In this document: in pieces, positions 5,995 to 30,218 of the stretch
Numbering within the stretch: the stretch's first letter is position 1
Layout: every line of letters starts with the position of its first letter
From: Microthyrium microscopicum
Taxonomy: Eukaryota
Direction: 5' to 3'
Assembly: GCA_010405405.1 (NCBI GenBank)
Contig: MU004232.1
Span: 453,481 to 517,480 of the forward strand
DNA: 64,000 bases
The notes under the pieces: model-generated
Told to the model about the DNA's origin: nothing
Databases searched by the model: none
What the model saw: only the letters and a program-made list of their open reading frames with translations
Made by a program: the position numbers and the translations under genes

Positions 5995-6969
5995 TCAAGC
6001 CAACCCTTTCTTATCAAGCCACCTTTCCTCATCAACCTGCCACCCTTCCCTCACTGGGAATTGGCAGACATGTTGTCTACCGTTTGAAGGCCGGGGATAT
6101 TCAGACCGACACTCTTTGACAGCATTGAGTTCCTCGTTGGACATGAAGCCTGCTACCAGCCCATCAGTGCCGTTGGCGGGCAAAAGGTAGTTGTATTTCT
6201 CGAGATATGCCATGGATGCCAGAAGGTCTCCCTTGAAATCATTCAAGCCTACTACAATCCCTGGCAGTAGGCCAGGAAGTTTTGAGTCTGTTGTGCTTGG
6301 ATTCAATGGAGTCTTTGCCAGGACTTGACAAGTGGACATGGCGTCGAGATACAGCTTGGCCATGTCTTCAAGAGCTTTGCGCATACTTTTTACCCGCTCT
6401 GTCTTGTTGATGTTCGCAATGTTCTCTGAGGTCGGGCGTATGTCTGCGGAAAATCCGTCTTTATCCATGTGGGATTGTCGATTCCCGAATAGTTCATCTG
6501 AATAGCAAGCTGGTATGCTAGGATCTTCTTTGTTTCCCCACCAAAATGTCCTGCAAGGCTGGGGAGTCCATGTATCTCGCAAAGCCCCGAGTATAGTGGT
6601 TTTAGTTTTGTTGATGATCTTGACGAGGCTGGGAAAGAACTTTGGCTCGTGTGAAAGCTGCGGGTTTTTAGGATCTGCCCATTGCCAACAGGAATGCAGT
6701 AGGCGGGGGTAATATTTTGACAAGGCCTCGTGGGCCTTCAGTTCGTCCTCAATTTGGGAGTGATATATGTATTCCTCTCGTTTGCGAACCCCCTTTTGGT
6801 CATTGTGGCACGAAGTCTTGAGTTGAGGCTCGTGTTCATAGTGTTTAGCCTCCAAGATGTTTCTTCCTGGCTGACGCGGTTGATTTGGATGTTGTTGACT
6901 TGTGGAGAGCGTCAGTGAAGATGACAATGTGATCAAAGACAATATGATTGTCACCAACAGAACCTTCAT
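5995..6969 (-). CDS. Secreted protein, family X copy 1 (internally duplicated helical domain)
   Basis: Signal peptide MKVLLVTIILSLITLSSS; RKR site; two copies of the Y..L..C...P.L..I...K..I.A unit, ending in ACYS and ECRS. Confidence 0.85.
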   Translation of the reverse strand: MKVLLVTIILSLITLSSSLTLSTSQQHPNQPRQPGRNILEAKHYEHEPQLKTSCHNDQKGVRKREEYIYHSQIEDELKAHEALSKYYPRLLHSCWQWADPKNPQLSHEPKFFPSLVKIINKTKTTILGALRDTWTPQPCRTFWWGNKEDPSIPACYSDELFGNRQSHMDKDGFSADIRPTSENIANINKTERVKSMRKALEDMAKLYLDAMSTCQVLAKTPLNPSTTDSKLPGLLPGIVVGLNDFKGDLLASMAYLEKYNYLLPANGTDGLVAGFMSNEELNAVKECRSEYPRPSNGRQHVCQFPVREGWQVDEERWLDKKGLA

Positions 6970-7678
6970 TTTGGAAATATTTAGGTATATTCTGGAAGAT
7001 TGTCAAGTACGTCGAAGCTCGAGCGATGGTCTACTATTGTAACCTAAAGGTTCATTTATATATGTTTCGGTACTCAAAGGCCATAGATCCCAAAATCTCA
7101 AAACTTGGTTGATCTCGCTACAGCGAACCGTGAATCTTTTCATACCAATCGCATAACAAACTAACTCACGTTCTCCCAACAACTTCCCTGGCTCCCACCA
7201 ACGCCTTTAATCAAGAAGTGTTATATTTTCCATCGCATTCAAAAAGACATCTAAGTCTCAGCGCCCTATATGGTAAAGAAAGCACTTGATACCAGAGGGT
7301 GTTATATAGAAGCCATCGAAGTCCATGAGGGTACGCGATCTATTTTGTCCATCGTTTGTCATTTCAAAACATAAGCAGATTGATGCAGTTTTCGCTCAGA
7401 AACCGGTAGTTTATATCGAATTCACAGTCTTCTATTAAAATCTAGCATCAAACGGTCCCCGAACTAGAAGTCGAGTTTTGACCAGCGGTAGCAACTATAC
7501 CAGACACACCAAACAGTGGCCGCTATGAGCCGTCATACGATTGCTGACTACCAAAATTCAAGTTCGACTGGTCTCTGCAGCAGCTGTCATCATGTATTCT
7601 ACCGGTAGCCATCTTCCCCGGACTATTAAAGTGAGCCAACAAAGCTCCCTTGCAGTGCCAGCAGGGTCACTATTATTC

Positions 7679-8196
7679 TTACACCCACTTAGTGCCATAA
7701 TGAACAACCATGTCCCAGTTCATTCTGCCAGGCCACCTGTCCTGAACGACTCCAATAGAACCTGGAAGCTGTCAGCACACTTACGTATCGGTATGATGAT
7801 CGTATACTAACCGCCCTTGAAGCCGCACTGTGCGCTAACACGTAGCAAGGCTTCTCCTACGACCAGGCATGGCAGCCTCAGAGTTTCAAGATTCTTTCCA
7901 TCTCCGTACCAGTTCGTACCGGAAATCTTTATGTTGCCCTCCTCGCAGAAATGCGATCCCTGCCCGTCATGCACGACGCATAGCTCGTCCTCCAACTTTA
8001 GCAGCCTGTCAATACAAACATTGACGGATTTTTGGAAGTCATCCGGCGTGAGTTGCTCGCTGTTGCATCTGACATCATAACCGTGTCGATTTGTTTGCTC
8101 TAGGACTTGAGCGCTTCCATTTCTCGAGGTTGCATTAGCTGCCGAGTGCCCAGCTACTAGCATCGCCAGCATAGACGTTAGAATAGCTAGCCTCAT
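7679..8196 (-). CDS. Small secreted 6-Cys protein, family Y copy 1
   Basis: ATG 8196 (MRLAILTSMLAMLVAG); intron 7811-7762; last exon SIGVVQDRWPGRMNWDMVVHYGTKWV* matches the intronless paralogue at 31055. Confidence 0.85.
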
Positions 8197-9167
8197 ATCT
8201 GTAGTAAAAACTGTCAGAGCCTGATTTGCTAATGCCTGATGCAAATACGATTACCTTTTACGGTGCGGTCAAGGAGATTCCAGACGGATGAATCTGATTG
8301 TTGAAACCGAAATCCAGTCGGATGGGCTCTACAGTAAAACGAGGATGGATTGTTGCGACATCCAAGAAGCCTTAAGTACTCAACTCTTTTCCTGCCAAAG
8401 ATGTTTTGACATTGGTACGTTCGTAAAATCGACCGTACCTACTATTTATGGAAGTACCAAGCTTCTAGAGCTGTTGAACAAGTTCGGTTGACCTCTTGAG
8501 GCTATTCAACAGACGTAGATAGATTTCAGATCATACGGCCGGCAAAACCGGTGAATCAGACTCGAACCGACTTCAGAACTCAAAGCATTGATTTGCCGGA
8601 TATATCTTGGTCGGCCAAGCGCGTCATATAGAACCTTTGATACCAGACGTTTTTGAGCTTACGCATGGTACAACTTACATACTGCAGAATAAAATTAAGC
8701 ACTTAGGTACCTACCTAGGTAGCTAACTTAACTATTGTTTATTGAGACTAGAGTTATCAATCTTTCTGCGTCTCACATGATCTGATCAGCAAGAGCACAA
8801 ATTCTCAAAGTGATTATTAGTGTCAATTTCAATATTTGGCGTCCACAGATTTGCCTTTTCGCTGCCATCGTACGGCGCCTAGAAATAAGCCATCATTCTC
8901 ACGTCCCAAATTTATGATGTGCCTTTGCAAGTATTTAGGACAACGTTACACTAATTGCACGAACACCAGTAAACCCAAGAACAGACCAAAAAAAACCACA
9001 AGTCGACCGAAGTCACCATAATAGATGGCTGGACAAATCGCATCAATGCCACCTAAAGACTTAGTGGTAGCATCGGCTAAGCTATGTTTTCTTACTTATA
9101 CTGGAAGACTGGCCGATTTGTGAAGCACTCGGTTCGACATTTTCCTTCTCACACACAATTATCAAAG

Positions 9168-10671
9168 ATGGGTCCATTTACCTTACTCTGGGCATTTGCC
9201 TTCTCTGTTATCACATCCTCCCTGGTCTCTGCTGCCCAAGACGCAAGACTATCCTCCGCTAAGGCTTTGTCTTCCCAAATGAGCTCCGCAAAGCTATTCG
9301 AGTGGAATCTTCAAAAGGCTAATCAGGACAAGCTTGTCGCACGACGTCGAAAAGCGCGGCAACAGACCATGGAGATACTTCGGGCAGATGATCTTAGCAT
9401 GCACAAGGTATGTTTCATAGCCTCAGCTAGATGAACAGGTCTAGAACTGCTTTCCAGTCTGAGCTAACATTTTCCAGAGAACTCTAGATCACGAAAAGTG
9501 GGAACATCTGAAGCGAATGGAAGCTCAGATTAACGAAATCCATGACACAATCCATAATATGCCTCTATCTACCTTTGATAATACAGGTAAAGTTCAAGGC
9601 TTGAGAGGAATCTTGAGGGCGGCTAAGCGCGAGTTTAGTGAGCTGAAGAAGACCATTCCTGCTTTATCCGATGACCATGTCCGCAAACCGTGGTGTGGTG
9701 TTGGAATGAGAGATCTATTAGCTTCAGCCGAACTGATGCCTTTGACGAAAGCTTTTATACCTAAACCGCGAGCAGTGGGGTCCATTCGTATCAAAACATT
9801 GTGAGTCAAGCCAGGACCTTCAAACACAACATATACTTGATTCTCACATTCTGTTAGCTTCCACGTCGTATTCCATAACGCGACTCAAAAAGAGTGGTTT
9901 GACAGACCTGATGGTAAAGGAAAGAAACGTTACTTGCCTCAGGTGCATACACTGAACTCGGCCTTCGGCGATACTCCATTCCAATTTGCACCTCCTGTGT
10001 GGAATTCCATGCTCGTTCCCCCAGGGGAAGGTATAGACAGCCTGGATCTTATGATCCACCTAGCCAAAAACTATCACAACGGTTCCTACGAGGACCTGAA
10101 TGTCTATATCTTGCCACGCGTCCCTACAAACGAACTTTGGGAAACACTTGGTCGCTGCAGTCCGCCAGGAGGCACTTACGAAGTCGAGGAAGGAAGCAAT
10201 GAGTTCGAGCAATTTCCAGGATTGACCCAAGCCAAGCTTGAGACAGATGGATGTTTTTTGGTCAGGGATTACCTTACTGATCCTGGGAGTGAGTTGCCTT
10301 GGGCAAAGGGATATACACTTGTACATGAAGTCGGGCATTGGTTAGGGCTTTGGCATCCATGGGGAAGCGCTCGTGATATTGAAGATGGGAATCGAAACTG
10401 TTCAGGAGATGATCACGTCTCGGATACTCCAAGGCAAGCCAACGGAACCACGGGTTCTCATTTGCTGCCTGGCTGGGATGAGAAGAAGGATACTTGTAAA
10501 GATCCTATCCCTAACAATACACTTTCAATATCGGGACTTGACAACATTCACAACTACATGGATTATGCAGACGATATAGAAAGGCGGGAATTCACCACAG
10601 GACAGAAAAATCTCATGTTGTCAAACTGGATCGCACATCGAGAGGGAGTTAGAGTTACACTTGAAGATTAG
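9168..10671 (+). CDS. Secreted zinc metalloprotease, family M43 (pappalysin/MEP1-like), copy 1
   Basis: Signal peptide at 9168; introns 9408-9477 and 9801-9857 keep frame; HEVGHWLGLWH zinc motif, DTP motif, NYMDY Met-turn. Confidence 0.9.
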
Positions 10672-11801
10672 TTCAATCAAATTTGTGCTAATCGACCCTT
10701 TTTTGGCCAAGTGCCTAATGCTTCCCTAGCAACGTTTTGACAGAAATACGACGAGGGAACTGAAATGCGAGTATAGCGATACTTAAAATTCTGCGGCGGT
10801 CAAATGCACGTCGTAATCAATGATAACTTGTCCACCGAGAATCAAAGTCGTTGTGCGTGACACAACGGAGAGCTGTGCAGGATCACCGCTAAGAGATCTA
10901 TATTTCGGCGGTACATTATTTGCAAGATGTAACAAGTCCCAACACTAGAATGCCGAAGCCTGGGGAAGTTGAGCTGGTTTAAAAACTGGAGTGCTCTGAT
11001 GACTTGTCGTTGAACCAGAATTTGGGAAACATGACGACTGAATACGGGCCAAAGAGCCGACACGTTGGCCTACACCAACCTTGGTATCGATGATTAGTTC
11101 AAGTCAGCACGAGTGATTACAAGGTTACATTCGAGGTAGTTCCACGTCAGTATTTGGATATTGAATCCTGTTGTCCTTGAAGCAGTGGATCTGGCGGTTC
11201 AACATCATTACAACGCTGAAATTGCTTGGATCTTAAAACATGAAAGCTACGACCGGTACATTTTGCCCAAGGGTGCTCTTTCTCTACTACATAATATTGA
11301 TTACTTAAGTACCTAATCTACCTATTAGCCACATGCGCTCTGTCCTTACACAAACGGTAATCAAGAGACGAGGCCAGCTTCATGTTCGTTCAATGTTGGC
11401 TACATCAGTGGAATCATTGTCATAGTCATATTTCTACCCCGAGGACCCTTTGACCTAGCCGCTCTCCTCGCGTAATCGGTATCGCAAAGGTGCAAAGTCT
11501 GCTTAGATTTTCGTGGTACTCTGTCCAATATCCGGGACAAAGATAGAACATCAGCTGTGTAGGGCCCATCAGTTGAAGACCCGTAAGTCCGGGGACCAGG
11601 TCAATGTTACTGTTGATTATTGGAAAAGATGAATAGCTACCTAGGTACCTACCTACCTAAGGTACTTACTTAAGGGACCACAGCAGCTGCTGTTTAGTCT
11701 TGGAGGTCCAACCATATACAAATTATATAAAGTAAATCTTTGGCTACTTCCCATCCCAATTCTATTCCGCTCACTGTCCGTCGCAATCCATTACTCAAAC
11801 G

Positions 11802-12890
11802 ATGAAGGAACTCATAGTCCTGACGATTTTAGCATGTAATGTTGTGGCTCATGCAATTTCACAGCCGAAAGGCTCAGACATGCAAAGCCAAGAAACAAGC
11901 ATCGATGGTAAGAAACAAATCGATTTTCGCGGGTTCTAAATCCATGTCTCCTCGTACAGTGCATTCTTCTTTCGCTTCAAGAAAAGTGCTAACTGTATCT
12001 ACTCAGGCGGGAATTCTTTCGTCCCCTGGGCTCCTGAGAGCCCTCCCATGTACCAACCGAATATCTCTTACGTCTGCCCACCGCCTAAGAACATCACGGA
12101 TGGGTCTCTCCTATCAAAACAAGAAACCGTCACCAGAGACTCTATTCGCCTCGCATACACGCATTATGCGCATACTTTGAACACATGTCAATCTCTAGTA
12201 GAATTTGCTCAAAAGAACGTGTCAGCTCCATTCAGGCCGGAACATTTGAGTCGATACGTCAGAACTCTCAACGACAGCAAGGGCTCTTTGATTATTGCTA
12301 TAAAAGCGATGAAGAAAAACGAACGAACCTATGAATGGACATATCAGTGTCGGTGTTTTCCATGCCCTCAATATAATATAAGCTCAAGTCACACCCCGTC
12401 TTTTGAATGCGATTTCGAAAAGGCTTATGCTCCAGAGTGTAGATACCAGCAATCGCTGTCTGCCAACTCGTCATGGGAAGAGATGGAAGCCCAGCTGAAA
12501 GCCGGTAATCCGTTTGTTGGCGACCATACATCCACAGGCCCCGAGACAAACAGCACGAGATGGGAATCTCATGGCTGGTGGCCAACCCCGGAGCATGAGG
12601 AGGTCTCTGAAATCATGAAGAGCTATTACCGTCGAACAGCAGGGTCATGTAATGATATCGCACAGTTCGAAGGCGTCCCTATAAACGAGTGGCCTCGTTT
12701 ATTGCCTGAACTCGTCGAGATTTTGAAAAACACAAAAACATTGACTATGGAAGCTATCAGAGCACTTGAGCCCCGAGTAGGAGTTTCCGGACATTCCATT
12801 AGTGAATCAAAAAGATTCTGGAGGGATGACTTGAAGACGACAGTCGCGGAATGTAGATGTCCTTTCGGCCGGATCTATGGATATGAATGA
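11802..12890 (+). CDS. Secreted protein, family X copy 2
   Basis: MKELIVLTILACNVVAHA signal; intron 11908-12006 in frame with ORF 12048..12890; two units (HYAHTLNTCQSL.. and YYRRTAGSCNDIA..LLPELVEILKNTKT), each followed by ECR. Confidence 0.85.
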
Positions 12891-12929
12891 TGAGAAGAGT
12901 ATTACTTCAAGGTGGTATCAAGTGCGATG

Positions 12930-12931
<2 letters not shown>

Positions 12932-12965
<34 letters not shown>
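12932..12965. repeat. (AG)n microsatellite
   Basis: About 17 uninterrupted AG units. Confidence 0.95.
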
Positions 12966-12968
<3 letters not shown>

Positions 12969-13274
12969 TATCTTCTAATTAGTGACGTCGGTGGTAGCCA
13001 TCGCCAGGGATGGCAGTGTGTCATATATTTGACTGTTTGACCGTCAGCTGCGATCACTTTCACAAGGGTGTTTTTGATATCGAGTGCGATAGTTACCATA
13101 GAAGCTTTTGATTATCGAGTGCTCTAATCCTGATCAACGCCGATGGGAGCTACAGAGATAAGACGAGTATAGGAGAGGAAGAGCATTAATGTTCATATAG
13201 GTGTTGTAGGAAGCGTATCTAAGAATATCCCGTCTCCCATCGCATCCGCTATTTCCCATGCAACCTTAAAAGCA

Positions 13275-14294
13275 CTATACTAGGCCTGTGGGAGGAGCGG
13301 GTGGCCCAGTCCCACTCCTCCTTCTCCTTTCGCGCTCAATGACGCCGGGCACGTCATCGCTCCTGCGACTTTCGGCATTATACGGCAGCATTTGGTAGTC
13401 GCGATTTTCCTGTTCGCGCCCCAACCAGTATCTGCGACCCACGCCGACCATGAGCCTTCCTATTTGGCCCTTGAGGCCTTCCCCTTGCGGGCGACTTGCC
13501 GAAAATGGGTCGTCTGCCAGATCGTCCTTACCGTCCTTAGCAGTTGACCATGGAGCGAAGCTGCCTATCGAGGCAATTTGAATTTGATGGCGTAAGACTT
13601 GGCGCGCATAGGCAAGAACGACGAGGATTGCGTAGAATCGCAGCAGCCAAAAACCGCAAACCATGAAAATGCTCATTGAACCGGAACTAGTGATCATGGA
13701 ACCTGCCAATCCTGGAAGTTGGGGCTTGCCGGTTACGCCCACTGCGATGGCGGATTGGGCAGGTGCTATTCCCGGTTTCGGTGCTGCGAGGACTTCCACG
13801 TGCGTGATGTTATCTTGTGGGTAATTGATACCGCTAGTATCGCCTACGATCCAACTGCTGGGACTTTTCTTGGAGCCATCGCTCCCCTTGGAGGCAAGTA
13901 CGACGAACCAGGTGACTCCAAACATGGCAGTGTAGGCCGCGTTGACGATGCTGTCCATGACGTATAGGTATGCGAAAGCGAGACAGTGCCATGCGCTTTG
14001 CGCTCGTACGGGACCAGCGAAGTATATGGTAGCGATGAGAACCGGAAGAGAGTATATGTACATCGAGAGCTGGGCAGCAGATAGGTGGAAGCCGGTCAGA
14101 AGCGCCAATATACCGTAAACCGCGGTGACTTTGTTAATGATTTGGGTCAGAAGGATAAGAGCTGTGCCGGTTCGTAAGGACATGAAGTGCATGAATTTCT
14201 GGCATAGAGTTAGCAAGATCCGTCCAAATAATCATAAAGGTTGGGTAGAATTTACGGTTGGTCGAGGCATCTTCAAAGCGCTTCGCCACGCCAT
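13275..14294 (-). CDS. KEI1: Inositol phosphorylceramide synthase regulatory subunit Kei1-like
   Basis: FMSLRTG..LI....INKV...YGILALLTG N-terminal motif and several TM helices; ATG 14294 with an intron near 14255-14201. Confidence 0.8.
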
Positions 14295-15259
14295 CTTGAA
14301 CGAGTTTCGGATGTTAAAGCAGGCTGTGATATTGCTGAAGAGGAGTGTTAGAGGTGTATGATATGGGAGCGCAGTATGAGAAGGTGGCGGCAGAGATTGA
14401 CGGTAATCAGAAAGCTTGTGATGAGTTAGAGGAAAGACTGAAGTCGCAAGATTGAAGAGAGGAGGTTTGGATCAATGCCAAGATCTGGTCCGTGCTGAGG
14501 GGCCTGATCCGAAACTTCCGAAACACGCGACCATAGAGCAAGCAACCGCACGACAAAATAACTGGCGTTCTCCCATCAACTTCGCTGGCTCCCACGAAAG
14601 CTTTCAATCAAGAGGGGTTATACTTTTCATCGCATCCAATAAAATATCCAAGTCTGGACGCCATATAACAATTAAAGTACTCAATACTAGAGCGTGTTGT
14701 GTAGGAGCTATTAAAGTCAATAGCGGCACGCCCTTTATCTTGTCCATCGGTTGAGCAAGTAGGTAAACCCAGTGACAAAATAACAGGCGCGCTCCCATCA
14801 AGTATGATGTCTACCATCTGCTACTCTTTATTAGCAGGTGCTTTATTTCCTACTCAATTCATGAAATATCCGAGTCATTATCGACGGCGACAGGAGCCAT
14901 CTTAGCTATCAAAGTGCCAGTTGTTTTGTCGATTTGTAGGCACCCGACTGATCGGAAAAATAGTTGGCGCATCTCCATCACCTACGGACAGTAAACTCTG
15001 TAACCGATAGAAGACATTGTTTCTCATGGAAGAGGGCCATTGATACTTCAATTCGTTGACGTCTACAATTCAGAAAAGCAATGATCGGCCAATTATGTCT
15101 AACAGAGATTCAAGCTGGTGGACGAAGTCTAAGATCTCTATTCCCAAATCTTCCATCTACTCCGCTGCCTTGTCAAACTCCCCATTTCCGCTACTTGCAT
15201 AAGAATCAGGAATCAATTTGAACGACCTGAGAATCGAGTTGGCTGTACATGGGACCTGT

Positions 15260-16254
15260 TCAGATATCAACCATGCCTACAGCCTCACGCAATCCTCTGG
15301 CATCACCCTTTCCTCCATGCTTCTTGATGAACTCGAGCAGCACACCGTTCAACTTCTCGGCATGTGTCCAGGTTGGAGCATGATATCCACCATCAACGAC
15401 CTCGGTCGTGACGCTGGCATTCTTGAGGTGCTCAATATCTTGCTTCGCGACACCCTCAGTGAAGATCTTGTCTTCCCCGCCACGAATCCATAGGACAGGA
15501 CATGTGATTGCATCAAGTCGCAGATGAAGGCAATCTCTAGTGATCAGAGCAATTGACGCCTCGACGAACTTCTTGCGTCCAGTATCTCCGGTGTAGTATT
15601 TATTGCTATCTTCGAACACAAGCTTCTTGTCAGCAGCTGTACCGTCGGGTCCAAGAGACAGATCCGCGGAACCTTGAACAATTGCCGATGGTAGTGCAAA
15701 GTTGGCATCGGTCGCAGAGAGACCGGATATTGTCTGCGTCAACATGCCGGCAAAGTCAATTGAGCCAAGCTCTGTAATATGCGAACCATTGGCGGACAAG
15801 GTGGTCGAGACGGGAATGAGTCCAAGCACCTTCATATCATTAGTGAGTGTGATGGTCATATAATGGTGTGACGTACACGATCCGGTGCCAACAGAGCCAT
15901 GCGAGCAGCAATCCAGCCTGCTTGACTGCTTCCCAAGACAAACACTTTCTTCACACCCAGAGAGTCAAGAGCTTGCCAGAAAGCAATCGCTGAATCCCAG
16001 GCGGTAAAGCAGGGACTTCTGGTTGATGTGTTCCCATGGCCCAACGGCTCCATGGCGATCAGATTCGCTACTTCGCCCAGCGCCTCATCGTTCAATTGAG
16101 GACGGAAGAAGGTAGTGGAGGTGATGAAGGGAGGAATCAGAACCACTGTGGGCTTGGAGTTCGCCAGAGTCTTTCGGTTCATCACATAGCCAACTTTCGT
16201 ACCACCAAGGTGACCGACGTGGACTGTCTTGCTGTTTGGAGCTTCAGAGGCCAT
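15260..16254 (-). CDS. Alpha/beta hydrolase
   Basis: EPLGHG, nucleophile elbow LGSSQAGW, CPVLWIRGGED and GGYH; intron 15876-15830 joins the two ORFs. Confidence 0.85.
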
Positions 16255-16872
16255 GATTGCAATATTGGCGTCAATAGAAAAGTTGGAAATGAGAGATGAG
16301 AGTCACAGATGAATGGGGAACGATTCAATGGGTTTATAAAGCGATAACCCCACGACTGATTAGACTTGTAAACAAGTGAGCAGGCTCTTGAAAGCTCCAA
16401 CGGGGATGAGATGGTATGACCAGGTAGCTTTGTACCCGCTTGATCTTTACATAGTACTCTAAAAGAGCGGGGGAGGGGAATGCATGAGAGTGGTGTCAGA
16501 GGTATGTGCCAGTGCCTTAAGGCCAGAGGCGGCTGGCCGATTGGCAGTTTAAGGCGCATGGCATGAAGTAAAGCGCGGATCAATGGACTTATTTGTGTCA
16601 CAAGATTTTGATAGGAGTGGGACGAAGATGGTACTATCGTGTGCACAGGAGGTCCTTGCGAGCATTTGAGCGTGCCGCTTCCATGACGTTTAACAGGCTG
16701 GCTCCATCTTATCTTATTCCCCGCGCTAGATTAGATCATCTAGCGTAGATTGATTAGATCTTATCTTCCCGCCTTATTTTTCTACAACTCCAAAAAGTTA
16801 AAACTTCCATTCTTGTCAACTGGCGATTTTTTACACCCCTCGAACGCGTGGGGCTTTGACAACCCTTGAATC

Positions 16873-19800
16873 ATGTCTAAGCGATCCCATCCTCGCGATG
16901 GCGAAGCCATTCAAAACACGCCTAACAAGCGACAAAAATCAGATGCACTGGAGGCACCAGCCCCCAGTATCAAAACAGCCCGTGATATTCACATGTTGTT
17001 GGCCTTCCACCAAGATGCTCCCCAATTGAGACTGGGTAAGCTGCTAGCTGCAGCGCTACATATAGATACATATCAGCTAACTTATTCTAGGCATCAAGCA
17101 TTTCAAGATTTTTCTTGAGACAATTCTGTACCCGCAAGATGAGGCTCTGGTTTCCGTCCATCTTCAACTCCTCCAGCAATACTTGGATTTTCAAAAACCA
17201 AGGGACATTGGAAGCGAAGAAGCATCTCATGTTCAGGATCTTATTCAAACCTTGGAGTTTGCATCTCAGAAAAATGAAGATGGTTTATTTTCTGCTGCCG
17301 TTGCCATTCTTGCTCTTCTCCTCAAGTCTATTTCCAATCAAATTGACCTTCGAGATCACGGCTTAGGAATTTGTCGTTCCGTTCTTGAATCAAATGCTCC
17401 TACGTTGATGTTCAAGGTTCTCTCAAATCCAAGGCATCGGGACTTTATGCTTTTACCATGCTATCGACTTCTATCAGAAATCGTAAGCTTTGACGGCGGT
17501 GCGATGGCCCGGCAGGTCTACTCGAAAAGAGACCAGACATTTGACAGTCGAGTGCTATCTCGTCATCTAGAGTCTCGTAGTACGGATTCGGAGACGAAAA
17601 AAAAGATCAATCCAAAACCAACTCTTCGATCTAATGCAGTTCGATACCTTTTGACAAATTTCAGATTCCAGGCAGAAGGAGTCAAGATGGATATCATGAC
17701 ACACACCAACATCTCGAGAGCATTATTTAGGGGTCTATCCGATGACACTCCAGCTACAGTTGCAGAAATCTTGGAAAGCCTCGAAAAATATATCCTTCAA
17801 GATCGTCAGGTTTCTTGGTCAAGCAAAAGTCAAATGATGAACGACAAGGCTCTTTCTGACTTTGTTTTTCTCTATCGCGCAAATGTCCCAGACGAACCGA
17901 TACCAGAAATTGGAAAACCTGTTGTGGAGCTTGTCCATGAATTTCTACTCCGTGTGTGCACTTCCAAAACAGCAGGTGTTCTCCGTAATGCTAATGGATG
18001 GTATCCTAAAACCCACGCTGTCAGTGCCAAAAATCTGGACCAGGAAGCAGGAGACGAAGAGGAAGAGATTCCAGTTGAGTCAATTGATCTATATGGGCCA
18101 ACTATGAAGCATGTTCCGATGAAAAATCAAGTCCTCGCCAATCTTGCACAAAGTCTGCATCCCTACAAGTCAGAAAAGGAAAAAGAACTACTGTTGGCAA
18201 TATTTCAGGCTTCACCTGAAGTAGTTGCCGATTATTGGATCAAACGAACAAAGTTTCCCTACGACCCCAAGTTGACCGCGACTTGGATTGGCTACTCCGC
18301 ATTTATCTTTTCAGCCATACAACTCCCAGTTCCCCAGTTTCTTGGTCTCAGAAGTGCTTATTCTTCACATGCACCACCACCCCAGATTGTCATCGAAAAC
18401 ATACTTCCTCAGCCACTAAATCGAGCAAGCTTGACCAAAGGCATAAACAGTACGACAACCTTACTCCGACTTTTCACAATCCGCGTTCTTTCCGCGGCAC
18501 TTGAAAAGCTTCGATCTGTCATCGACTTGTACCAAAAAGTGGCCGACGAGGTTTCTAGCCTCGGGTGGGAGAAAGCTATACCTGCTCTAGTTAGTCTTGT
18601 TATTCGCCGATGTCCCACAATGAAGGATGTCATTCTAGCGTTTCGGCGCCTGTCAAGCAGCGATCCTTTGCAACGGGAATCCATTGCAAGACTTCTTTCG
18701 CAGTACTATGAGTTGCTCCCGCAGCTAGCACTTGAAGAACCATTTGACGTGTCTATAGCTTTAACAAAAGCCTTGGAACAGACTGAGTCTCTAGATCAAA
18801 CTTCACCAGAAGCACGCATGCAACTCGTTGAACTGGAGCATCTCATCAAGATTGCACATCGCTCGGCTAGCATGAGCTGGTGGAAACGTCCTGAGAGTCT
18901 GAAATATTCAGCATATTTGACGACGCTCTTGGTACATGTTCAGTCAAACCGAGTCGCCAGTACCGAAATCGAACATATGCTCAAATCAATTGCTCAGGAT
19001 GATGGTATCCTTCAATCTGAGACTCAAGCTTCATCTTTTGGTGCTCTAGTCCAAAGCCTGCGCGTAGCATCAAATGCTAGTGGATTCACCGGAGTTGCAG
19101 AATTTATTGATGATTGCTTGCAGAGATATACAAGCAGGCCCATCATATATGCTGATGCGCTAGATCAGTGCATCTCAGAGTGCGAAGTGGATGATGCCTT
19201 ATCAAATCCTATCAGCGTATGGATCATGACACTTCAGGGTCAATGGGCATATGTTGAAAGCAACCGGAAAGATCATGCTAAAGAGATTGCGTCCTGGCTA
19301 GGTGGCCTTCTTCGGGGTCTTATCGATTGTGGTGAAGATGAAACTATCATTTCTGCCGTCGCTGACAAGGTCGAAAATGTTGCAGAAGATAAGAAAGTAA
19401 AGAAAGCATTCACAAAAGCATTCAAGCAGAGCTCATCGAAGAAAAGCCAGACTGAGGATGAAAGCCCCAAGAACGGAATCCACGTCAACGGGATTTCCAA
19501 GGTAGACCCAGCAAAGGAGACTTTTGATATCTCAGTATTTGCACCAACTCCAGAGAAATCAACGCCGAACTTTGTGAAGTTCAAAACCGGCGATGTAATC
19601 GCCTTACTTGAATCCTCATCAATGAGCGATCTGCTCTACTGTTTGTCCTCTTCAGACAAACCAACCCGCATCCAAGCAATGACAGCAATCCAGCATCTTG
19701 GTATCCGCATCGAGTCCAGCACCCACCACGAGTCCGAAATGATATATCTCCTCCTTGGCGAGCTGGTCGAAACTAGCATCACCCACTCACCAGCCAACAC

Positions 19801-20485
19801 CGATCCGCTACCCTACGTAGTCACCGCATTTGCCGCACACGCGCTCCAAGTGCTCCTCGACCCAACATCCGCGGTCTACCCCAAGGTCGCCGCCTTTCTC
19901 ACCCTGCGACCTCGCTGGAACCATCTGAACCTCGTGCTACACTTCCTCAATGCCATCGTGCTCGCGGAGCCTGCTGAAGACACGGACGCTGCGCCCTGGA
20001 CTGAGTGCACGTTTTTGCTGAACTGGCTGAACGCTGGCTTACGAGGCCCTGCGGACGGTGCGATCTTGCGTCAAGTCGGCGCTTGGGAAGTGATGGGCGG
20101 GCTAGCAGCACATCCGTCGCTCGGTGCTTCCACGGCTACTGCGCCTGGCGGTCCTACCGAAGAGCAGAAAGCTGGTGGAAGACAACAGAATCGCATAAGA
20201 TCGCTGGTACTGGAACTTGTAGGCAGAGCAGTATGCATTGGGGAGGGAGCGACACTGGCCACGAGGGCGGGTGCGTTTGCATGGATGGATGCGTGGGTTA
20301 GTTTGGGATGGCTTGAAAGTGAGGTAGCCGAGGCGTTGAAGGAGAAGATGTTGAGTGATGGGGGCGAGAGGGTCAGTAAATGGAGTTTTGGGCTGTTGGA
20401 GACTGAGATCAAGAAAAGCGGGGATGCCGTGGACGTCTTGAAGACAGAAGAGTTGGACGAGAGCGATGGTAGTAGTGAATCGTGA
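16873..20485 (+). CDS. URB1: Nucleolar pre-ribosomal-associated protein Urb1/Npa1
   Basis: Intron 17036-17090 joins the ORFs; motifs EIVSFDGG, RSNAVRYL, DPKLTATWIGYSAFIFS, ENILPQPL match fungal Npa1. Confidence 0.85.
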
Positions 20486-21789
20486 ATACTTAATGGTAAA
20501 CACGCAACTATTGAATAGAGTCCATGCTGTTGACTGCTCTTCTGCTTTCTCTTCACCTCGCACACGCTCGAGCTCATATTGCCTATCAGTTTGCGTTTCT
20601 TTTCCAATGGCTACATTGCTTGTTGTGCAAGGTAAGTCTGTATATCCCTCGTAGGTCGCGTGTGTGTCCTTAACACTGGGCAAAAGCAGTCAGAGAACGG
20701 TTGGGCAGTTAAGGGTCCTGCACACAGTCATTACACGCGTATTCGATCAATTGGCCACTCGATTCGGAGCGGTGCGAAAAGAACAGCAGTTTCCAAGCAT
20801 GACTTTGGTGACTTAACCCCAGTGAGGCTCTGGAGTGAATTGGCGAGTCCAGACGGTCCAGTTGTATCGAGTGCCACACAAGGCCGAGACCTCGAAGCCC
20901 CCTGCCCAGATCTGGGCAGGCGTGTGGCGCTGGGAAAAATCCGCATTCACTAGCCGTTTGTGGAAAGGGGCGCAAATAACTCCAACTTCATGACATGCCA
21001 ATTCAACAGTTTGCTGCCCGTTATTATTGCCATGATTGCAACTGCTCCAGATTGTTGGAACTGGAGATGAGAGACAACGATGCTTTGCTAGCTTCTACCA
21101 CGTTGTTGATGCCGAAGGCCCTTACGATCTCTTCGGAAGGTGTCAAATTGCGAATATCACCACGTGTATTTGTCGCTCCTCAGCTCCTGCTTCAAATCTC
21201 CCGAGTATTGCGAGACCCTGCGTATGCTCACTGGTGGTTTAGGGCCCATCTAAGAATACGCGGTTGTACGAGTGAACACGCAGTTACCCGAAGCTGGAGG
21301 TCTTGGTATACATAGCGTGTCTAACCCACCCTCCATTTACTGGACCGTTCACAATGGTAAAGCTAATGGCTCCATGCCCAGAACCACATTTTCATTTCCA
21401 CATGAAGTTTTTCCTCACCAAAACCCGTGTTTGGGTCAATGAGCTGAGGCATGTCCAATGTCTTGCGGCCACTCAGGCTGACATTGGACTGGGCCCAAGA
21501 GAAGTTTCCAAGAAACACACCGCATCGTGAGCACTTCCAAAGCATATCGCCAACCTTTTCAAAGCCACATTGCTAGGCATCGCTTACTACCCAAAAGGGA
21601 AGTGTTGACATACATATCCTTCATACTCCCGAACTCAAGACTTTTCTCTTTCTCACCTCCACCCTTCCCCCCTCTCTACTTCCCTTCACTATCATTCTAG
21701 CTCAGTCATTCGTTTATCTGAGCGTTAGGATAATATTCTTTAGCTACAGTCGTTCTTTTCAACCATATTCATTTAATAATTAGCTCATA

Positions 21790-23633
21790 ATGTCTCTTTT
21801 CAAAGCTCTTCTTGCTTCGTCTGCCATTTTTTCAGCAGTTTCAGCACACCCAGGTCATCTTGGTAAGCGTGCGGAACCATTTGGCCAAGTCATCACAAGC
21901 TGTACTGTGCCAACCACTGTCGCTCTGACTTTTGATGATGGCCCTCATACATACACCGAAGAGCTTCTGGACAAACTCAAAGTTGCTGGTTTCAGGGCTA
22001 CATTCTTTGTGAATGGTAACAATTATGGAAAGATTGAGGATCATGCATCTACGCTCAAGCGTATGATCACGGAGAAGCATCAAGTGGGATCTCACACTGT
22101 ATGTTCCAAGACAATCATCGTCAAGAATATAGACTGCAATACTGGTACTAATAACGTGTAGTGGTCTCACGCTGATCTCGGCGCAAGTGATGCTACGACG
22201 GTCGGACTCCAAATGACACAATTGGAGACATCTTTTATGAACATCCTAGGATACATGCCATATTACATGCGTCCACCGTTCCTATCAACCAGTGCAATTG
22301 CACTCGACGTTCTTGCTCAGCTTAAATATGTAGTCATGAACGTTGATATTGATACCTTGGACTGGGCAAACCTTTCCCCAGATACTGTGCACTACGGATT
22401 CAGTAATTATACCGCCGCATTCAACAACAATGGACGAATCAGTCTGTCGCACGATCCCCTGATCGACACTGTTCAGACTCTCGTTCCACAAATCATCACT
22501 TTCCTCCAGGGCAAAGGCATGAAGTGTATGAACCTTGCTTATGATATGTTGAGAATAATCTCACTGACTATTTGTAGCGGTTACTGTGGGCGAATGCCTT
22601 GGTGATCCAGTCCAGAACTGGTATCGCACAACTCGTGCCAACACCTTCAACCCGTATGCTGCCGTCTCATCCTCCGCAAGCAGCTCCAAGACCTCGTCCA
22701 CGGCGACTTCTTCGACCGCAAAGTCGTCTTCCGTCTCTGCTACTTCTTCCAAGGCTTCATCCTCCGCATCTAAAAGCGCTTCTAGCTCAGCCGGTGCTAG
22801 CTCTACCAGCTCTAGGGCGTCATCTCGCGCTTCTTCATCGGCAACCGCTTCAGCATCAAAGACTTCGTCTGCTTCTGCTTCATCTAAGGCTTCTTCAGCC
22901 TCTGGTGCCGCATCATCGGGTTCCTCGATTTCAAGGATCTCCTCTGCTTCTATCTCTGCTTCTGCCTTGAAATCGGTCTCCACAGGTTCGTCATCCGTTC
23001 TCTCTGCTCGCAGTGTATCGGTCTCTGCGGGCTCTTCTTCTGTTCTCTCCGCCAACAGCGTATCAGTTTCAGCCTCCGCGTCAATCGCCGCTTCAGTATC
23101 CGGCTCGTCTGTCGTGCCTTCATCTGCGGCTTCTTCAGACGTCGCCTCCTCCAGAGCACCATCTGCCGCACCATCGTCCGCGCAGCCATCAGCGCCAGTA
23201 TCTTCCTCTGTAAGTTTACCCTCTCTACCTTGGAAGCGCCCACTAACCGATGTAGGCCCCTAAGCCATCCACTGTCGTAAGTCCAGATGACACCTGTGGC
23301 GGCTCAACCGGCTTTTCCTGCGGAGGCTCTCAATGCTGCTCACAATACGGCTGGTGCGGTGTCTCCGACGCCTACTGCAATCCATCCAAAGGCTGTCAAT
23401 CCGCCTTTGGTCTCTGCACAGGCTCAACTGGCTCGGGATCCACTAGATCCCCTGAATCTTCAGGCTCAGGTTCTACACCAAGTGGCCCATCACCCGACTC
23501 AACCTGTGGTGGAGCAAAAGGATACGCTTGCGCTGAGGGTGATGAGCCATGTTGCTCGCAATATGGATACTGTGGATCTGGTCGCAGCTACTGCGGTAAT
23601 GGATGCCAGGGAGCCTTTGGCTCCTGCTGGTAG
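21790..23633 (+). CDS. Secreted CE4 polysaccharide (chitin) deacetylase with Ser-rich linker and two CBM18 domains
   Basis: NodB motifs TFDDGP, HTWSH (across an intron), RPPF, DTLDW, LSHD; introns 22099-22161, 22526-22577, 23210-23255; C-terminal CCSQYGWCG and CCSQYGYCG hevein-like units. Confidence 0.92.
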
Positions 23634-24191
23634 GTCTCTGAGATGTAGCGTGATGGGTGACTGGCTAGGAGATGGTGATGTTGTATTCTATGGTTTGGAA
23701 GACAGGTGATGTACGTGAAGAGGTAATGATATTGGTATATATTACATAATGGGGATACTATTGCGAGTCCCAATACGACTCTTACTGCAATCGATTTTGT
23801 AGCTTGTATGGTTATATAAATTCTCATCAGAAATTGATCAACGAAGACTTTGGTTTTGTCCACAAAATTCGGCCTTCGTACAAGCGAGACTTTTAGTTTT
23901 CGACTGGAACGTTAGTGGAGGTATGTTCATGATTCGGCACATCATAATAATTCTAACATGATAGGGCCCAATTTTTCTGGCACTTCCACACTAAGCAGTC
24001 CACACTATTGAACTTTGCATTCAGCGTGCCATACTTACAAAGCGGGGACTTTTTGCAAGGCACGTAAGCAGAAGATAAGCCAAAGCGAAGGCCGACGAAA
24101 GTCCAGTTTTTCGTAATGTCAAATCTTTTCCGCCTTTTGGTTATTCTTTGATCCAAGTTACCGCCTCTGCAAGTGCCTCGACGGTTTCAAA

Positions 24192-25130
24192 ATGAAGTCA
24201 TTCCTTATTGCACTCATACTTTCTTTTTTTACAGTGGTTTACTCACTTGCGCTGCCTAACGATCATATACGGATTTCTGAGCGTAAGTTCATGCCTCAGG
24301 CTAGTTGGTGTGTCTCGACAATGATGCTGATTATCTCTCCAGAGAGCAAATCTGTAGAGCGAGATGACAAATCTATACCCCGACTCGAGATCAGGGATTT
24401 AAATTGCGATCGGGGCAAATATTATCTTCTCAAGCTGATGATAGCAAAGGAAGCATTTGACCATGTGTCAAACTATTACGAACACACCCACAAAGCTTGC
24501 ATGTTTCTGTCAAAGTTTAGACAGCTTAACGTGACATTGCCGTGGAATCCTGATTTGCTTCCCCAGCTCATCAACACCCTGAAGAACACCAAGACCTCTG
24601 TCCTTATCGCCATGGACGCTCTGGCCAAAGATCAACGCCCCGACCAGTGTGGACATACTACGATGGAATACATCATGGATAGCGAAGCCAGTTCGACCTT
24701 CACTGGTTTGCTTGCAGATGGCGGAGATCTTGACTACGGGGAGTGTCGGTCACACATACCACGGACTACTTTAGGTCGATTGCAGGCGATACAATCTCTC
24801 GTGGATGGAGACTTCGGATTAGAAGATAAAGATCTGGAATCGAATCCTGTCTCGGCTCATATTGTTCCGCAATGGCAGCTGACAAAGGGGCAGGCTGAAG
24901 TCTATGACCTGATACAAATTTACCACAACCAGAGTCGAGCGGCATTTGAAGATCTAGCACGATTCCAGGGCGTCCCCCTACCAACCTGGCCTGCCTTGAT
25001 CCCTGATGTTACGAAGATTGTGCAGAAGACAACAGCCTATATCACGTTCTCCATTGCGAACTTCGAATCCAAAGGGACAGCACAAAAGCCCGAGAGACAA
25101 ATCGGTTCATGTAAGTTTCTTGATTCTTAA
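24192..25130 (+). CDS. Secreted protein, family X copy 3
   Basis: Signal MKSFLIALILSFFTVVYS; probable in-frame 60-nt intron 24283-24342; units YYEHTHKAC..PDLLPQLINTLKNTKT and YHNQSRAAF..WPALIPDVTKIVQKT. Confidence 0.85.
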   Translation: MKSFLIALILSFFTVVYSLALPNDHIRISERKFMPQASWCVSTMMLIISPESKSVERDDKSIPRLEIRDLNCDRGKYYLLKLMIAKEAFDHVSNYYEHTHKACMFLSKFRQLNVTLPWNPDLLPQLINTLKNTKTSVLIAMDALAKDQRPDQCGHTTMEYIMDSEASSTFTGLLADGGDLDYGECRSHIPRTTLGRLQAIQSLVDGDFGLEDKDLESNPVSAHIVPQWQLTKGQAEVYDLIQIYHNQSRAAFEDLARFQGVPLPTWPALIPDVTKIVQKTTAYITFSIANFESKGTAQKPERQIGSCKFLDS

Positions 25131-25254
25131 CCCTGGAGCTGCAAGTCTCTGTCATTCCAGGAAGATACTAAACGAAATTATAGACACCATCCCTTCTATT
25201 GCTAGCGATACAACTGCGAGCAAAAGTAACTTACAAGAGGGGTACTTCACCTTG

Positions 25255-25380
25255 TCGCTACTGAAAAGTTTAGCAGACGATCCATCTCCATCAGAACAAG
25301 AAGTCACTGTAAAGGACGCGGATCAGCTCACGAGTATATATTACGCAAAGACCTTGAACAGCTGTGAATCTCTGCCCCGT
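25255..25380 (+). pseudogene. Fragment of a family X gene (partial duplicate of copy 4)
   Basis: DDPSPSEQEVTVKDADQLTSIYYAKTLNSCESL versus copy 4 GPSPWEQETIVRDAVHLTKAYYMKTLNSCQSL, with a similar upstream intron end. Confidence 0.75.
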
Positions 25381-25503
25381 AAGTTTGACCCCCAATGACT
25401 GAGGCACTTCTCCCTGCTTTTCTCGAGCTTCAAGATAAAAAAGTCTCATTATCCTGAGTCCTGAAGATTCGTTGAGAACAATATTCATTGATTCACTCTG
25501 TAG

Positions 25504-26389
25504 CTGTCGATACCACCAAAGAGGATGTCAAACCCTCGTCCCCCAGTTCGCGAACGTATCCTAACTGCTCCAAAGGCAAAGTGATTTGTTCGGTGCCGAG
25601 ATTACGTAAGCCACAAGAGACACTACTCGCCCGTCCATTACTGACAAGCGTGGCCCAGACGGCCCATCTCCGTGGGAACAAGAAACTATCGTCAGAGACG
25701 CAGTCCATCTTACAAAGGCCTATTACATGAAGACTTTGAATAGCTGTCAATCGCTAGCAAATTACACACGGCCAAATGTGTCACCCAGCTTTACGCCCGA
25801 TCTCTTACCTAAGATGGTCAGAATCCTCAATGACACCAAGACCGCAGTTGTTGTGGCCATGAATGCTTTGAATGCAAGTGGTATGCTGGCATTCGACGAT
25901 GAGACCGAGAGAGATTATGCACCCGAGTGTAGGTCAAACCCTGCACTGGCGAAGAACGATTCGTCGTGGGAGGAGATGCGAAGCAAACTACATGGAAACC
26001 ATGTTTTGGACGAGACAGCATCCCGGACCGGTATATTTGAGGTGCCAAAGGACATTAATTACGTAGAACTCTGGACTTGGTCTCAGACAGCAGAGCAAAA
26101 GGATGTCTATAAGACGCTGTCAAACCATTATCTGGAGACCTTAGAATCATGTAATGCAATAGCACGATTTCAGCAGCCGCCGAGGCTAGAATGGCCTCAC
26201 TTACTTCCTGAACTGGTCGACATCTTGAAGAATACCAAAACTGCGATTCTGCAAGGTATGAGGGCGCTGGAACAAAAGCATAAATGTGGAACGGGTGTCC
26301 CTCCCAGTCACACAATGATTCTCCTTTCAAAGGAGCGAGAGAGCGCTGTCGAGCAGTGTCAGTCGCCCTCACACTTATCCTACGTATAA
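25504..26389 (+). CDS. Family X copy 4; signal-peptide exon apparently degenerate (possible pseudogene)
   Basis: Exons 25504-25605 and 25659-26389; strong similarity to copy 2 (YAPECR, SSWEEM, WPHLLPELVDILKNTKT); no intact ATG plus signal peptide found upstream. Confidence 0.7.
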
Positions 26390-27062: not shown

Positions 27063-28711
27063 CTATGCCTTCACGAACTTCCTGTGGGTCCGAAGAGTCA
27101 TCCAGGTCTTGTACATCTCTTCCGTTTGATTAGGAGTGAACAACCACAGCTCAGCGTCGTCGGAATAATCCATATAGTTATGGATGTTATCTGGCCCATC
27201 CACCGAAGATAATGAACCATAACAAGTATCCTTTGCTTCGTCCCAAGGTACGTGAGCCTCATGCGGGCCACGGGTAGGGCCCCATTGCTGGGGCGTGTCG
27301 GGAATACCATCATCCCACATGCAGTATACATGGTCGTTTGCATCTGGGACGTCGGGATATATTCTTTCATTATGGAACCATTCACCCCAGGGATGATGAA
27401 GACCAAGCCAATGGCCTACTTCATGCACAGCCGTCTTCCCTTGTCTGAATTGTGGCCATTTTCCAGGACCGGGAGGGCCGGGTATGGTTAAGTTGTTGAC
27501 CAAACATCCATCATCAAAAAACCATCTCAGTGGATAATCTACAGGTGCTTCACCAGGGATCGTTGTTTGGTTCTCTAAAGCGGTTGGAAAGGTGCATCGT
27601 CCCATAACATAGTCTTCCACACCGGTCACAAAGTACAAGTTTAGATCCTGGTATCGCCCTTGGCGCAATGCTGCCTTCATTTCACCCATAGTTTCGAACC
27701 AGTCGTCCAGTTTTCCACCCCATGACGCATTCGCATAAGTCACAATGCGTTCCAAATTGAACTGGAATGGTGTGTTGCGGTATGCATCATTCAGAGCTTT
27801 CCACTGGTCAACATAAGGTGCGTCTCGATGTGAGTTCTTATCGTCTTCAAATTCATAGACGACGTGAAATCTATTGCTGTCAGAAGGCGACTTGTAACCG
27901 TCATGCTTGAGAGAAGAACTGAACTCACATGGTATTGATGAAAATTGACTTAGCTGCGGGTACTTCCCAGTGCACCAGCTCCGTCAAGGGTTTTGATCGT
28001 TTATATTCTATGTTGTCTCTGCTTTTGAGACTACATCTCTCATATGGGTGGCTTGGTAGTGAAGCCTGGTATCTTTCAAGTGCATCTTGGCTGGTTCCTA
28101 GGGTGCCAACCACTTCTTCCTCTATCTTTGGGTCCCCAGATAATGGAAAGGGCGAGTTCTTCATATGCTGGTACATTTGCGCGATCTGGGTAGACATTTG
28201 TCGTAGCATACTCTGAGCTTCTTTTTCCAAGCGTTCCTACAAGTTTTCAGCATTGAGTTCCGATCACAGATCGTATGTCGAATAATCAAAGAAAGGAATT
28301 TGAGTGAGTATGGACTCTAGGTTATTACTGGGGATCTGATTTGAAGCAAAATGGAGTACTACACACCTTACGTTCAACTGATTCGTGCTCTCGAATGACT
28401 CTGACTCTCTCATCCTGTTCCTTGTATCGCCTCTCGTCAAGTCTCTTGCGGAATCCTTCCTTCCAGGTGCTTTCCTGCCAGCTTGACCGACTTCCGATTG
28501 CTTTCAAGGCATTCGGAGAATCATCTGCTGGATGCAGGTGGGCGACCCCTGGAATACTCGGCGAGTAAAGACTGGTCTGGAAGGTCGTCGCTGGCACTGT
28601 GCTAGCTATAGTCTCCTCTTGATGATTGGACCGAACTGTAGCATGGCTAGTCATAGCTAATGATAGAATCAATAAGATTGCGTACATTGTCATGAGCTGG
28701 AAGGGTTTCAT
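27063..28711 (-). CDS. Secreted zinc metalloprotease, family M43, copy 2
   Basis: Signal peptide at 28711; two introns at positions equivalent to copy 1 (the second just before FHVV); HEVGHWLGLHH, DTP, DNIHNYMDYSDD. Confidence 0.9.
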
Positions 28712-29718: not shown

Positions 29719-30218
29719 ATGTTGCCCAAATTCCTCACTGCAGCAGTACTGCTGGTTGGCATTCCTGCGGCATTCGCACAGAGCATTCTTTCTAGCTCTC
29801 TGAAACTGGTGCCCAATGGCGGATATCCTCTTACCTGTAACGAGAAGCAAATCCCTAGCAGACAAGCCGAGAATCTCGATTTCTGTGTTGAGCGCTTGGC
29901 TAATATGACCGACATCTGCCGTGTTGAGGATAACGAATCTGCACATTTCTGCGCAAAAGGAGGCATCAAAATCAGTGGGCGCACATGGTACAAAGACGGC
30001 GTCGAGCTTGGAGGTCTGCAGATTCCGTGTAGCACGGTTGGCGAAGCACTTATGCGTGTCATTGCGGAATGTGGTCTTAAAGGATAAGTCCAAAGTCGTC
30101 TAGCGCTCTGGGGGAATGCTAATGCTTTATTACAGGCTCGATTGGCGTTGTTCAAGAAAGATGGCCCGGGGTCATGGACCTCGATATTGTTGTTCATTAT
30201 GGCACTGACTGGGTCTGA
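29719..30218 (+). CDS. Small secreted 6-Cys protein, family Y copy 2 (splice donor looks defective)
   Basis: MLPKFLTAAVLLVGIPAAFA signal; HFCAKGGIKISGRTWY; last exon SIGVVQERWPGVMDLDIVVHYGTDWV* at 30136-30218, but the donor site reads GGATAAGT. Confidence 0.8.

Follow-up and report, generated by a model that had tools for sequence, protein, structure and literature searches.

We report here a small gene family, clustered in one 64,000-nucleotide stretch of the genome of the fungus Microthyrium microscopicum (the window; assembly GCA_010405405.1, contig MU004232.1, positions 453,481–517,480), whose products are built from tandem copies of a repeat unit of ~95 residues. The family consists of three genes, A, B and CD, which carry 2, 2 and 4 units, respectively, plus a truncated one in CD. 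The reading that we favour, with a confidence that falls somewhat short of even, is that they encode lineage-specific, secreted, glycosylated, disulfide-stapled and non-enzymatic proteins, which would bind multivalently and act outside the cell.

An internal tandem duplication had been proposed from the sequence, and a profile self-comparison had been named beforehand as a test that could refute it. In this comparison, the profiles of first units and of second units (four units each, from the 8 full units) aligned over 89 columns with an hhalign probability of 97.7% and an E-value of 1.4e-12, and each of the 8 units scored 11.9–54.1 bits against the profile of the opposite type. In the control, 0 of 500 shuffles per unit matched the real score, and reversed sequences reached at most 1.9, so the duplication is borne out. 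The proposed consensus also agrees with the alignment columns, and the units are present where they had been placed. With a profile of all units, a pair of domains is located in each of the open reading frames (ORFs) 5995–6969 (minus strand), 12048–12890, 24192–25130 and 25727–26389 (all plus strand), and one partial match at 25000–25395, with the next best match in the window at E = 0.021. Since the members themselves built this profile, it locates the units and is no test of their reality; the four ORFs and the partial copy are also linked by translated searches within the window. Core identity between units is 11–51%. Divergence at the first, second and third codon positions was 0.54, 0.41 and 0.67, respectively (1428 codon pairs), which fits coding constraint and old coding paralogues, on a protein-guided alignment that is itself biased toward this pattern. 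In the unit tree, none of the five inner branches was starred; a weak group (64/96) is formed by the second units of B, C and D, whereas both units of A are unplaced.

Four genes plus a fragment had been counted in the original prediction, a number that has to be reduced to three, as one frame of 628 codons runs through the third and fourth genes and the 'fragment' between them. Contigs of run X1, a run labelled RNA by guess whose contigs also skip GT..AG introns in neighbouring genes, carry GT..AG joints at 24282^24343, 25110^25184, 25378^25504 and 25605^25659. All four joints have an equal depth value, shared with contig record 6, and each is supported by one contig from one study. Joining the five exons (24192–24282, 24343–25110, 25184–25378, 25504–25605 and 25659–26389, plus strand) gives one frame of 628 residues with a single terminal stop. 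Thus, the four joints and the open frame unite C, the 'fragment' and D in a single gene, CD (24192–26389), which is transcribed and spliced in the run X1 contigs. A further joint (23918^23963), equal in depth value to those of CD, marks a probable intron in the 5′ untranslated region upstream of the start codon (23919–23962, plus strand). The CD protein consists of a leader, C1, C2, a Ser/Thr/Pro-rich linker with the truncated unit, D1 and D2, with 12 cysteines and 8 N-glycosylation sequons; no leader for D was seen in the three frames upstream of D. The present structure corrects database model P0123 (357 residues), which stops half way through CD: this model keeps the first two CD introns and then reaches a stop within intron 4, so that a shorter CD isoform is possible. 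Searches of the protein collection did not recover the D half.

Gene A (5995–6969, minus strand; outside the stretch compared with X1 contigs) is a single ORF of 324 residues, identical to database protein P0002, and is the most divergent member of the family. It has a hydrophobic leader, a Lys-Arg site at residues 63–64, 7 cysteines and 3 sequons, and its units A1 and A2 lie at ~6490–6780 and ~6061–6414. Gene B (11802–12890, plus strand) encodes 329 residues if an intron predicted from splice signals at 11908–12006 is removed behind a leader exon at 11802–11907. This 99-base intron has good signals, and its phase and place agree with those of the first intron of C. Units B1 (~12099–12461) and B2 (~12570–12887) follow, with 10 cysteines after the leader and 7 sequons in the protein; database model P0001 for this gene starts at 12048 and has no leader. 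Hydrophobic N-termini are present in 3/3 protein models, and 19-residue windows with hydrophobicity >1.4 occur only at the first 6 start positions of all three. By the same measure no membrane segment and no hydrophobic C-terminal tail or anchor signal was found in any of the three proteins, and these sequence features suggest that the family is probably secreted.

The fold of the unit was modelled with AlphaFold2 on unit D2 and the 9-row unit alignment, giving a predicted local distance difference test score (pLDDT) of 81.1 and a predicted template-modelling score of 0.74 (pLDDT of the five models, 65.5–81.1). In this model, helices at residues 7–33, 44–70 and 79–91 form an up-down-up three-helix bundle; the unit is thus predicted to have two 27-residue amphipathic helices with a Pro-rich loop between them and a shorter third helix. 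Amphipathic helices, which the original prediction had suggested, are in keeping with the model and with a helix analysis, in which the best 18-residue moments were 0.25–0.54. Structural matches of the unit (syntaxin Habc, plakin, Not5 and designed bundles) had Z-scores of at most 9.2 and a root-mean-square deviation (rmsd) of ~3–4 Å. The fold tool's own bar for helical proteins is a Z-score of ~13, so that these matches point to a common arrangement and name no family; likewise, Foldseek of the unit against PDB gave no E-value below 1.1. Hence the proposed check by AlphaFold and Foldseek returned a confident unit fold and no family-level match in PDB, and the modelled fold is an ordinary three-helix bundle, not a strange one.

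Most of the conserved columns are hydrophobic heptad positions. The others comprise three prolines, with conserved proline where helix 2 starts, two cysteines and a Tyr/Thr/Thr/Lys set; the net charges of the helices are mostly near zero. In unit numbering, Lys56 and Tyr20 are each present in 7/8 units, Thr55 in 6/8 and Thr23 in 5/8. Cys27 and the cysteine of the ECR-type motif (Cys96) are also each found in 7/8 units, and the cysteine count after the leader is even in B (10) and CD (12). The proposed pattern of unit plus ECR motif therefore stands for most units and fails for C2, in which the first cysteine is replaced by Phe (1/8 full units), the third helix is absent, and the spliced frame contains neither core cysteine nor the ECR motif. 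As the up-down-up topology would return Cys96 toward Cys27, a disulfide between the two is plausible in the modelled fold.

No named domain family was recognised, in keeping with the original prediction, and searches of Pfam, PDB and large protein sets gave no match outside the locus. In Pfam-A, the best E-value was 0.08 for whole proteins and 0.082 for 9 single units, none at a curated cut-off, and a sequence profile search of PDB gave a best E-value of 0.09, to importin beta. A profile search of 5.8 billion proteins, restricted to near lengths, found 2 matches among 3120 candidates, both in this window; the unit profile against longer proteins of this set gave 3 matches among 8000 scored, and a full HMMER scan of 1.84 billion representatives gave 3 matches, all from this locus. 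An Atlas search returned no usable feature match for D or A, and structure matches for A came from a model with pLDDT 0.37 and had query template-modelling scores ≤0.32. On metagenome contigs 0/77 pattern matches were confirmed for D and 0/38 for the neighbouring housekeeping gene Urb1, and among viral structures no match reached E ≤ 0.001.

Within the organism's own genome, all matches with E < 1 in five protein searches lay inside the window, with few candidates scored, so that remote paralogues could be missed. A scan with the unit profile of 452 kb of partly overlapping stretches (~1% of the genome) gave a best E-value of 0.19. A match on contig C10 (E = 1.6) was rejected as a further copy at 8.5 bits on the unit profile. 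The three most motif-like genome hits were rejected as well: the first belongs, as an exon, to a long gene that looks conserved, presumably N-myristoyltransferase, the second lies beyond a stop where an intron probably begins, and the third is a short frame between stops. As judged from these sequence searches, the repeat family is lineage-specific and known from one genome. The Urb1 ORF is 100% identical to a Microthyrium microscopicum record and only 48% identical to the next-best match (8000 scored candidates), which argues that close relatives are barely sampled; on such a long, thinly sampled branch, the orphan status of the family is partly expected. No publication on the repeat family was found, subscription papers and bioRxiv supplements being outside the reach of that search, and the available main text of PMC12382754 does not mention Microthyriales.

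The structure of CD bears traces of how the gene may have been assembled. The 'fragment' of the original prediction is CD exon 3 (25184–25378, plus strand), which by DNA alignment and X1 joints is a decayed duplicate, in tandem, of the 5′ portion of D and holds helix 1 only. DNA at 25111–25480 aligns with 25441–25900 at a score of 130 (maximum of 200 shuffles, 69), and exon 3 shares 22/35 residues with D1. In the X1 contigs, 25225–25277, the homologue of intron 25606–25658, is retained within exon 3 as in-frame coding sequence, and the frame of the decayed copy breaks after helix 1, at the start of the present intron 4. Moreover, codons overlapping the intron 3 donor would, without splicing, give Ser-Cys-Lys-Phe-Leu-Asp-Ser-stop, like the ECR-type end of a stand-alone gene. 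These observations fit a fusion of C and D by new splice donors, although no tree branch is well supported and the order of events is a proposal from sequence comparison: one unit would have doubled inside a gene, the gene would then have multiplied locally, and C and D would have been fused by splicing from a donor in the apparent former last codons of C, through the decayed partial copy of D.

By Pfam, the window also contains genes for Kei1, an alpha/beta hydrolase, Urb1/Npa1, Ctf4 and glutamate synthase. At 6–31.5 kb, two proteases of the M43 type are encoded around the family genes, as are three small cysteine-rich proteins and a polysaccharide (chitin) deacetylase. Metalloprotease M43a (9168–10671, plus strand; 458 residues, two introns in X1) has a leader, a helical pro-region, the motif HExGHxxGLxH and a match to PF05572 over the cut-off (E = 2.7e-7). 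M43b (27063–28693, minus strand; ~480 residues, two predicted introns) has an intact zinc motif and a match under the cut-off (PF05572, E = 0.0017). The two are 29% identical over 455 aligned positions, and their pro-regions, of ~190–210 residues and rich in predicted helix, have no Pfam match over the cut-off. Run X1 gives no cover over M43b and most of 10992–11655, and is uninformative there. The deacetylase (21790–23633, plus strand; PF01522, E = 8.7e-18; 533 residues, four introns in X1) is of secreted type with a Ser-rich linker and two C-terminal cysteine-rich modules, which we take to be of the chitin-binding type. Urb1/Npa1 (17183–20485, plus strand; PF11707 and PF16201) is a housekeeping gene within the cluster.

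The small cysteine-rich proteins, all of secreted type, are S1 (7679–8196, low end approximate, minus strand; 155 residues, one predicted intron at 7762–7811), S2 (29710–30087, plus strand), whose ORF ends at the position of the intron of S1, and S3 (31055–31537, plus strand; 160 residues, intronless). S2 and S3 are 41–43% identical to S1, and there are 16 matches to this family across the genome. No Pfam match with E < 0.5 was found for them; their cysteine spacing recalls, on our assumption, folds of the KP4/Ecp2 type. A head-to-head pair of an S gene and an M43 gene is present twice, in opposite orientation. At 30083–30135 (plus strand), S2 contains an intron-like stretch with a branch point and acceptor, no canonical donor and a conserved exon-like stretch behind it, which may indicate a damaged gene or a non-canonical intron. 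When promoter blocks of 8 cluster genes were compared, 3/28 pairs scored above shuffles; all three did so on a single palindromic stretch of low complexity, and one of these pairs was the same DNA read from both sides. Palindromic low-complexity stretches of a TACCTAGGTA-like word lie between cluster genes at 8700–8730, 11300–11330 and 11635–11675.

Under the favoured reading of a secreted multivalent binding protein, the leader would give the protein entry to the secretory pathway and thereby to N-glycosylation (3, 7 and 8 sequons in A, B and CD, respectively). The cysteine near the end of helix 1 would bond the ECR cysteine after helix 3, a staple that would protect the bundle from proteolysis. 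Lacking an anchor, the protein would be released, and its 2–4 diverged units would bind an outside protein or a surface polymer with avidity. It would most likely serve in encounters with other microbes or with the plant surface, alongside the proteases and small cysteine-rich proteins of the cluster. We also considered a more specific and distinctly improbable version, in which the unit is a new disulfide-stapled recognition module of three helices whose Tyr/Thr/Thr/Lys layer binds a defined ligand, within a kit of fly-speck fungi for leaf-surface antagonism together with the co-located M43 proteases and small cysteine-rich proteins. In this version CD would represent a doubling of valency under way, through a C-end donor capturing a leaderless paralogue, with isoforms of 357 and 628 residues.

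Several points weigh against the favoured reading, which as to function rests on anatomy and neighbourhood. Housekeeping genes (Kei1, the hydrolase and Urb1) interrupt the cluster, and the upstream regions of A, B and C have no common block above shuffles; thus the neighbourhood does not establish a joint function. The leader exon of B is predicted, and the X1 contig over 11931–12923 starts within the predicted intron and carries no joint. The cysteine count of A is odd (7), and the cysteine equivalent to that of the ECR motif in A1 differs between alignments. Loss of the second cysteine in C2 follows from the splice, as the unspliced read-through keeps a terminal cysteine, and the paired loss is therefore weak evidence for covariation. 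A two-unit model was poor (pLDDT 55.3, with 38.5–40.7 for the other four), and, from this model, the units may pair into one joint domain instead of folding separately. Matches of the two-unit model were generic four-helix bundles, e.g. tetraspanin-like membrane domains (Z = 10.7), despite proteins with no membrane segment, and a complex prediction of unit 1 with unit 2, run without alignments, scored 0.02 and speaks neither for nor against pairing. Finally, a supplement row of PMC7082219 classes M. microscopicum as a probable saprotroph, which argues against an effector role in plant immunity.

Among the alternatives, a surface-active protein or lipid/wax binder that works in the manner of HsbA or Mp1p is unlikely. 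Its bundle would open or accommodate an acyl chain, and it would adsorb to the cuticle, recruiting hydrolases there. Amphipathic helices, tandem domains and probable secretion would suit it, and the conserved Tyr/Thr/Thr/Lys could, speculatively, hold a carboxylate. According to the available part of 10.1101/2020.03.13.989582, the fruiting shields of fly-speck fungi develop above the cuticle, which would also suit a wax binder, and the mode of interaction with host or leaf surface is called unclear by its authors. HsbA (PF12296) and Mp1p are, like the present family, secreted fungal helical bundles. Mp1p proteins sometimes have tandem domains. The present unit differs from both in its three predicted helices and conserved cysteine pair, and a disulfide between the ends of helix 1 and helix 3 would limit opening of the bundle. 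Moreover, no PF12296 match was found, and hhalign against 9 of the 21 HsbA matches that the genome already has gave a probability <0.1% and scores of 8.0–9.4, inside the shuffled range (maximum 10.4). HsbA, Mp1p and PMEI-type proteins were not among the 50 matches listed per fold search, which excludes nothing.

We judge equally unlikely a structural role in the wall, the extracellular matrix or the fruiting-body shield, with spare cysteines serving for cross-links. The many sequons, extra cysteines and Ser/Thr/Pro linker would accord with such a role, as would the neighbouring chitin deacetylase, and rod-like bundles match spectrin- or plakin-type repeats in a generic way; opposed to this are the lack of a hydrophobic C-terminal anchor signal, units of only 11–51% identity and a family of only three genes. 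A partner of the neighbouring M43 proteases, be it an inhibitor, chaperone or substrate adaptor, is improbable. B adjoins M43a and CD adjoins M43b, but adjacency alone is weak; no family member was found in 20 kb around each of three further M43 loci or in the 30 kb beyond the window end, where a fourth lies, and the unit profile has no similarity to either protease.

A membrane-active toxin against competing microbes, of the alpha pore-former type, is slightly less probable again, and the sequences argue that a pore-forming toxin is unlikely. Secreted helical bundles would be expected of such toxins, and low-ranked generic matches of the poor two-unit model included AhlC (Z = 8.2) and Cry4Aa (Z = 7.8). 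These Z-scores stand amid dozens of unrelated bundles and below the bar of ~13, net helix charges are mostly near zero, and no mature protein has a hydrophobic hairpin or segment, a test that amphipathic-only toxins escape. The likeness to ClyA/AhlC-type toxins and Cry domain I therefore extends to long amphipathic helices in a bundle with weak generic structure matches, whereas the hydrophobic insertion segment and any sequence similarity are missing here.

A near-neutral, decaying orphan family with little present function has a very low probability. The decayed partial copy within CD, the missing core cysteines and helix 3 of C2, and a D half with no leader of its own would fit decay, but there are three open frames, four joints that keep the frame across 628 codons, best conserved second codon positions and no dinucleotide signature of repeat-induced point mutation (RIP) in the family genes. 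Finally, we give hardly any credence to a small enzyme in which the Tyr/Thr/Thr/Lys set makes up a new active site: although these four residues recur in 5–7 of the 8 units, they fit helix packing, no invariant His, Asp or Glu and no metal-binding pattern were seen, and small helical bundles seldom form catalytic clefts.

Among known folds, the modelled unit resembles Habc/spectrin-like bundles (Sso2, the Habc domain of Vti1, syntaxin, the plectin plakin domain and the N-terminal domain of CNOT3/Not5) in its up-down-up arrangement, with Z-scores of 8.4–9.2 and rmsd of 3.0–4.1 Å over 88–98 residues. At 3–16% identity, Foldseek E-values of at least 1.1 and a tie with de novo designed bundles, this is a likeness of arrangement that does not demonstrate homology; the proteins compared are cytosolic and lack a conserved cysteine pair, and searches for sequence homology to syntaxin or spectrin families gave no Pfam match and a best PDB profile E-value of 0.09. 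In gene organisation, the closest likeness is to lineage-specific, tandemly expanded secreted families of effector candidates of Dothideomycetes, for example those of Venturia inaequalis described in the available part of PMC9632046. Both are probably secreted, cysteine-containing, non-enzymatic, without Pfam domains and clustered as by tandem duplication; however, the present proteins are larger (324–628 residues), with an all-helical repeat and a probable saprotroph as their source, and the folds named for the families in that source are of beta-sandwich types. Clustered lineage-specific secreted families are thus well known in this class, as far as the available part of that source goes, and the repeat sequence itself is undescribed in the searched data. 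Among fungi, families confined to one species are frequent.

Other features of the region were noted in passing. Positions 7146–7358 and 14543–14753 are 76% identical copies of a dispersed repeat of ~213 bases with 43 genome matches, perhaps a small non-autonomous element, and degenerate direct repeats of ~80–110 bases (77–85% identical) overlap short ORFs at 2505–2922. An 85-base inverted repeat (50431–50515 and 53378–53462, 98% identical) lies around a 3-kb AT-rich stretch with a RIP-like index of 0.37 and probably marks a decayed DNA transposon. It is flanked by two similar-looking, probably multi-exon genes rich in His/Met motifs (48247–49017, minus strand; 53600–55293, plus strand), one of which has weak matches to SURNod19 (E = 0.011) and a copper monooxygenase C-terminal domain (E = 0.12). 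An ORF at 46890–48113 (plus strand) combines a cysteine-rich, STIG1-like part (E = 3.1e-5) with a linker rich in Ser and additional, uncharacterised domains. A separate locus (L045, G000:C3:537481-547480) contains three similar-looking tandem ORFs of 261–273 codons on the minus strand.

The CD gene offers a clear small case of gene fusion via new splice sites and intron read-through. With a common fold and a family from one genome, no new kind of system is indicated; if the proteins are indeed secreted multivalent binders, one undescribed repeat domain would be added to the fungal secreted repertoire, and its 95-residue unit would be a compact, foldable object for the study of fly-speck fungi on leaf surfaces.

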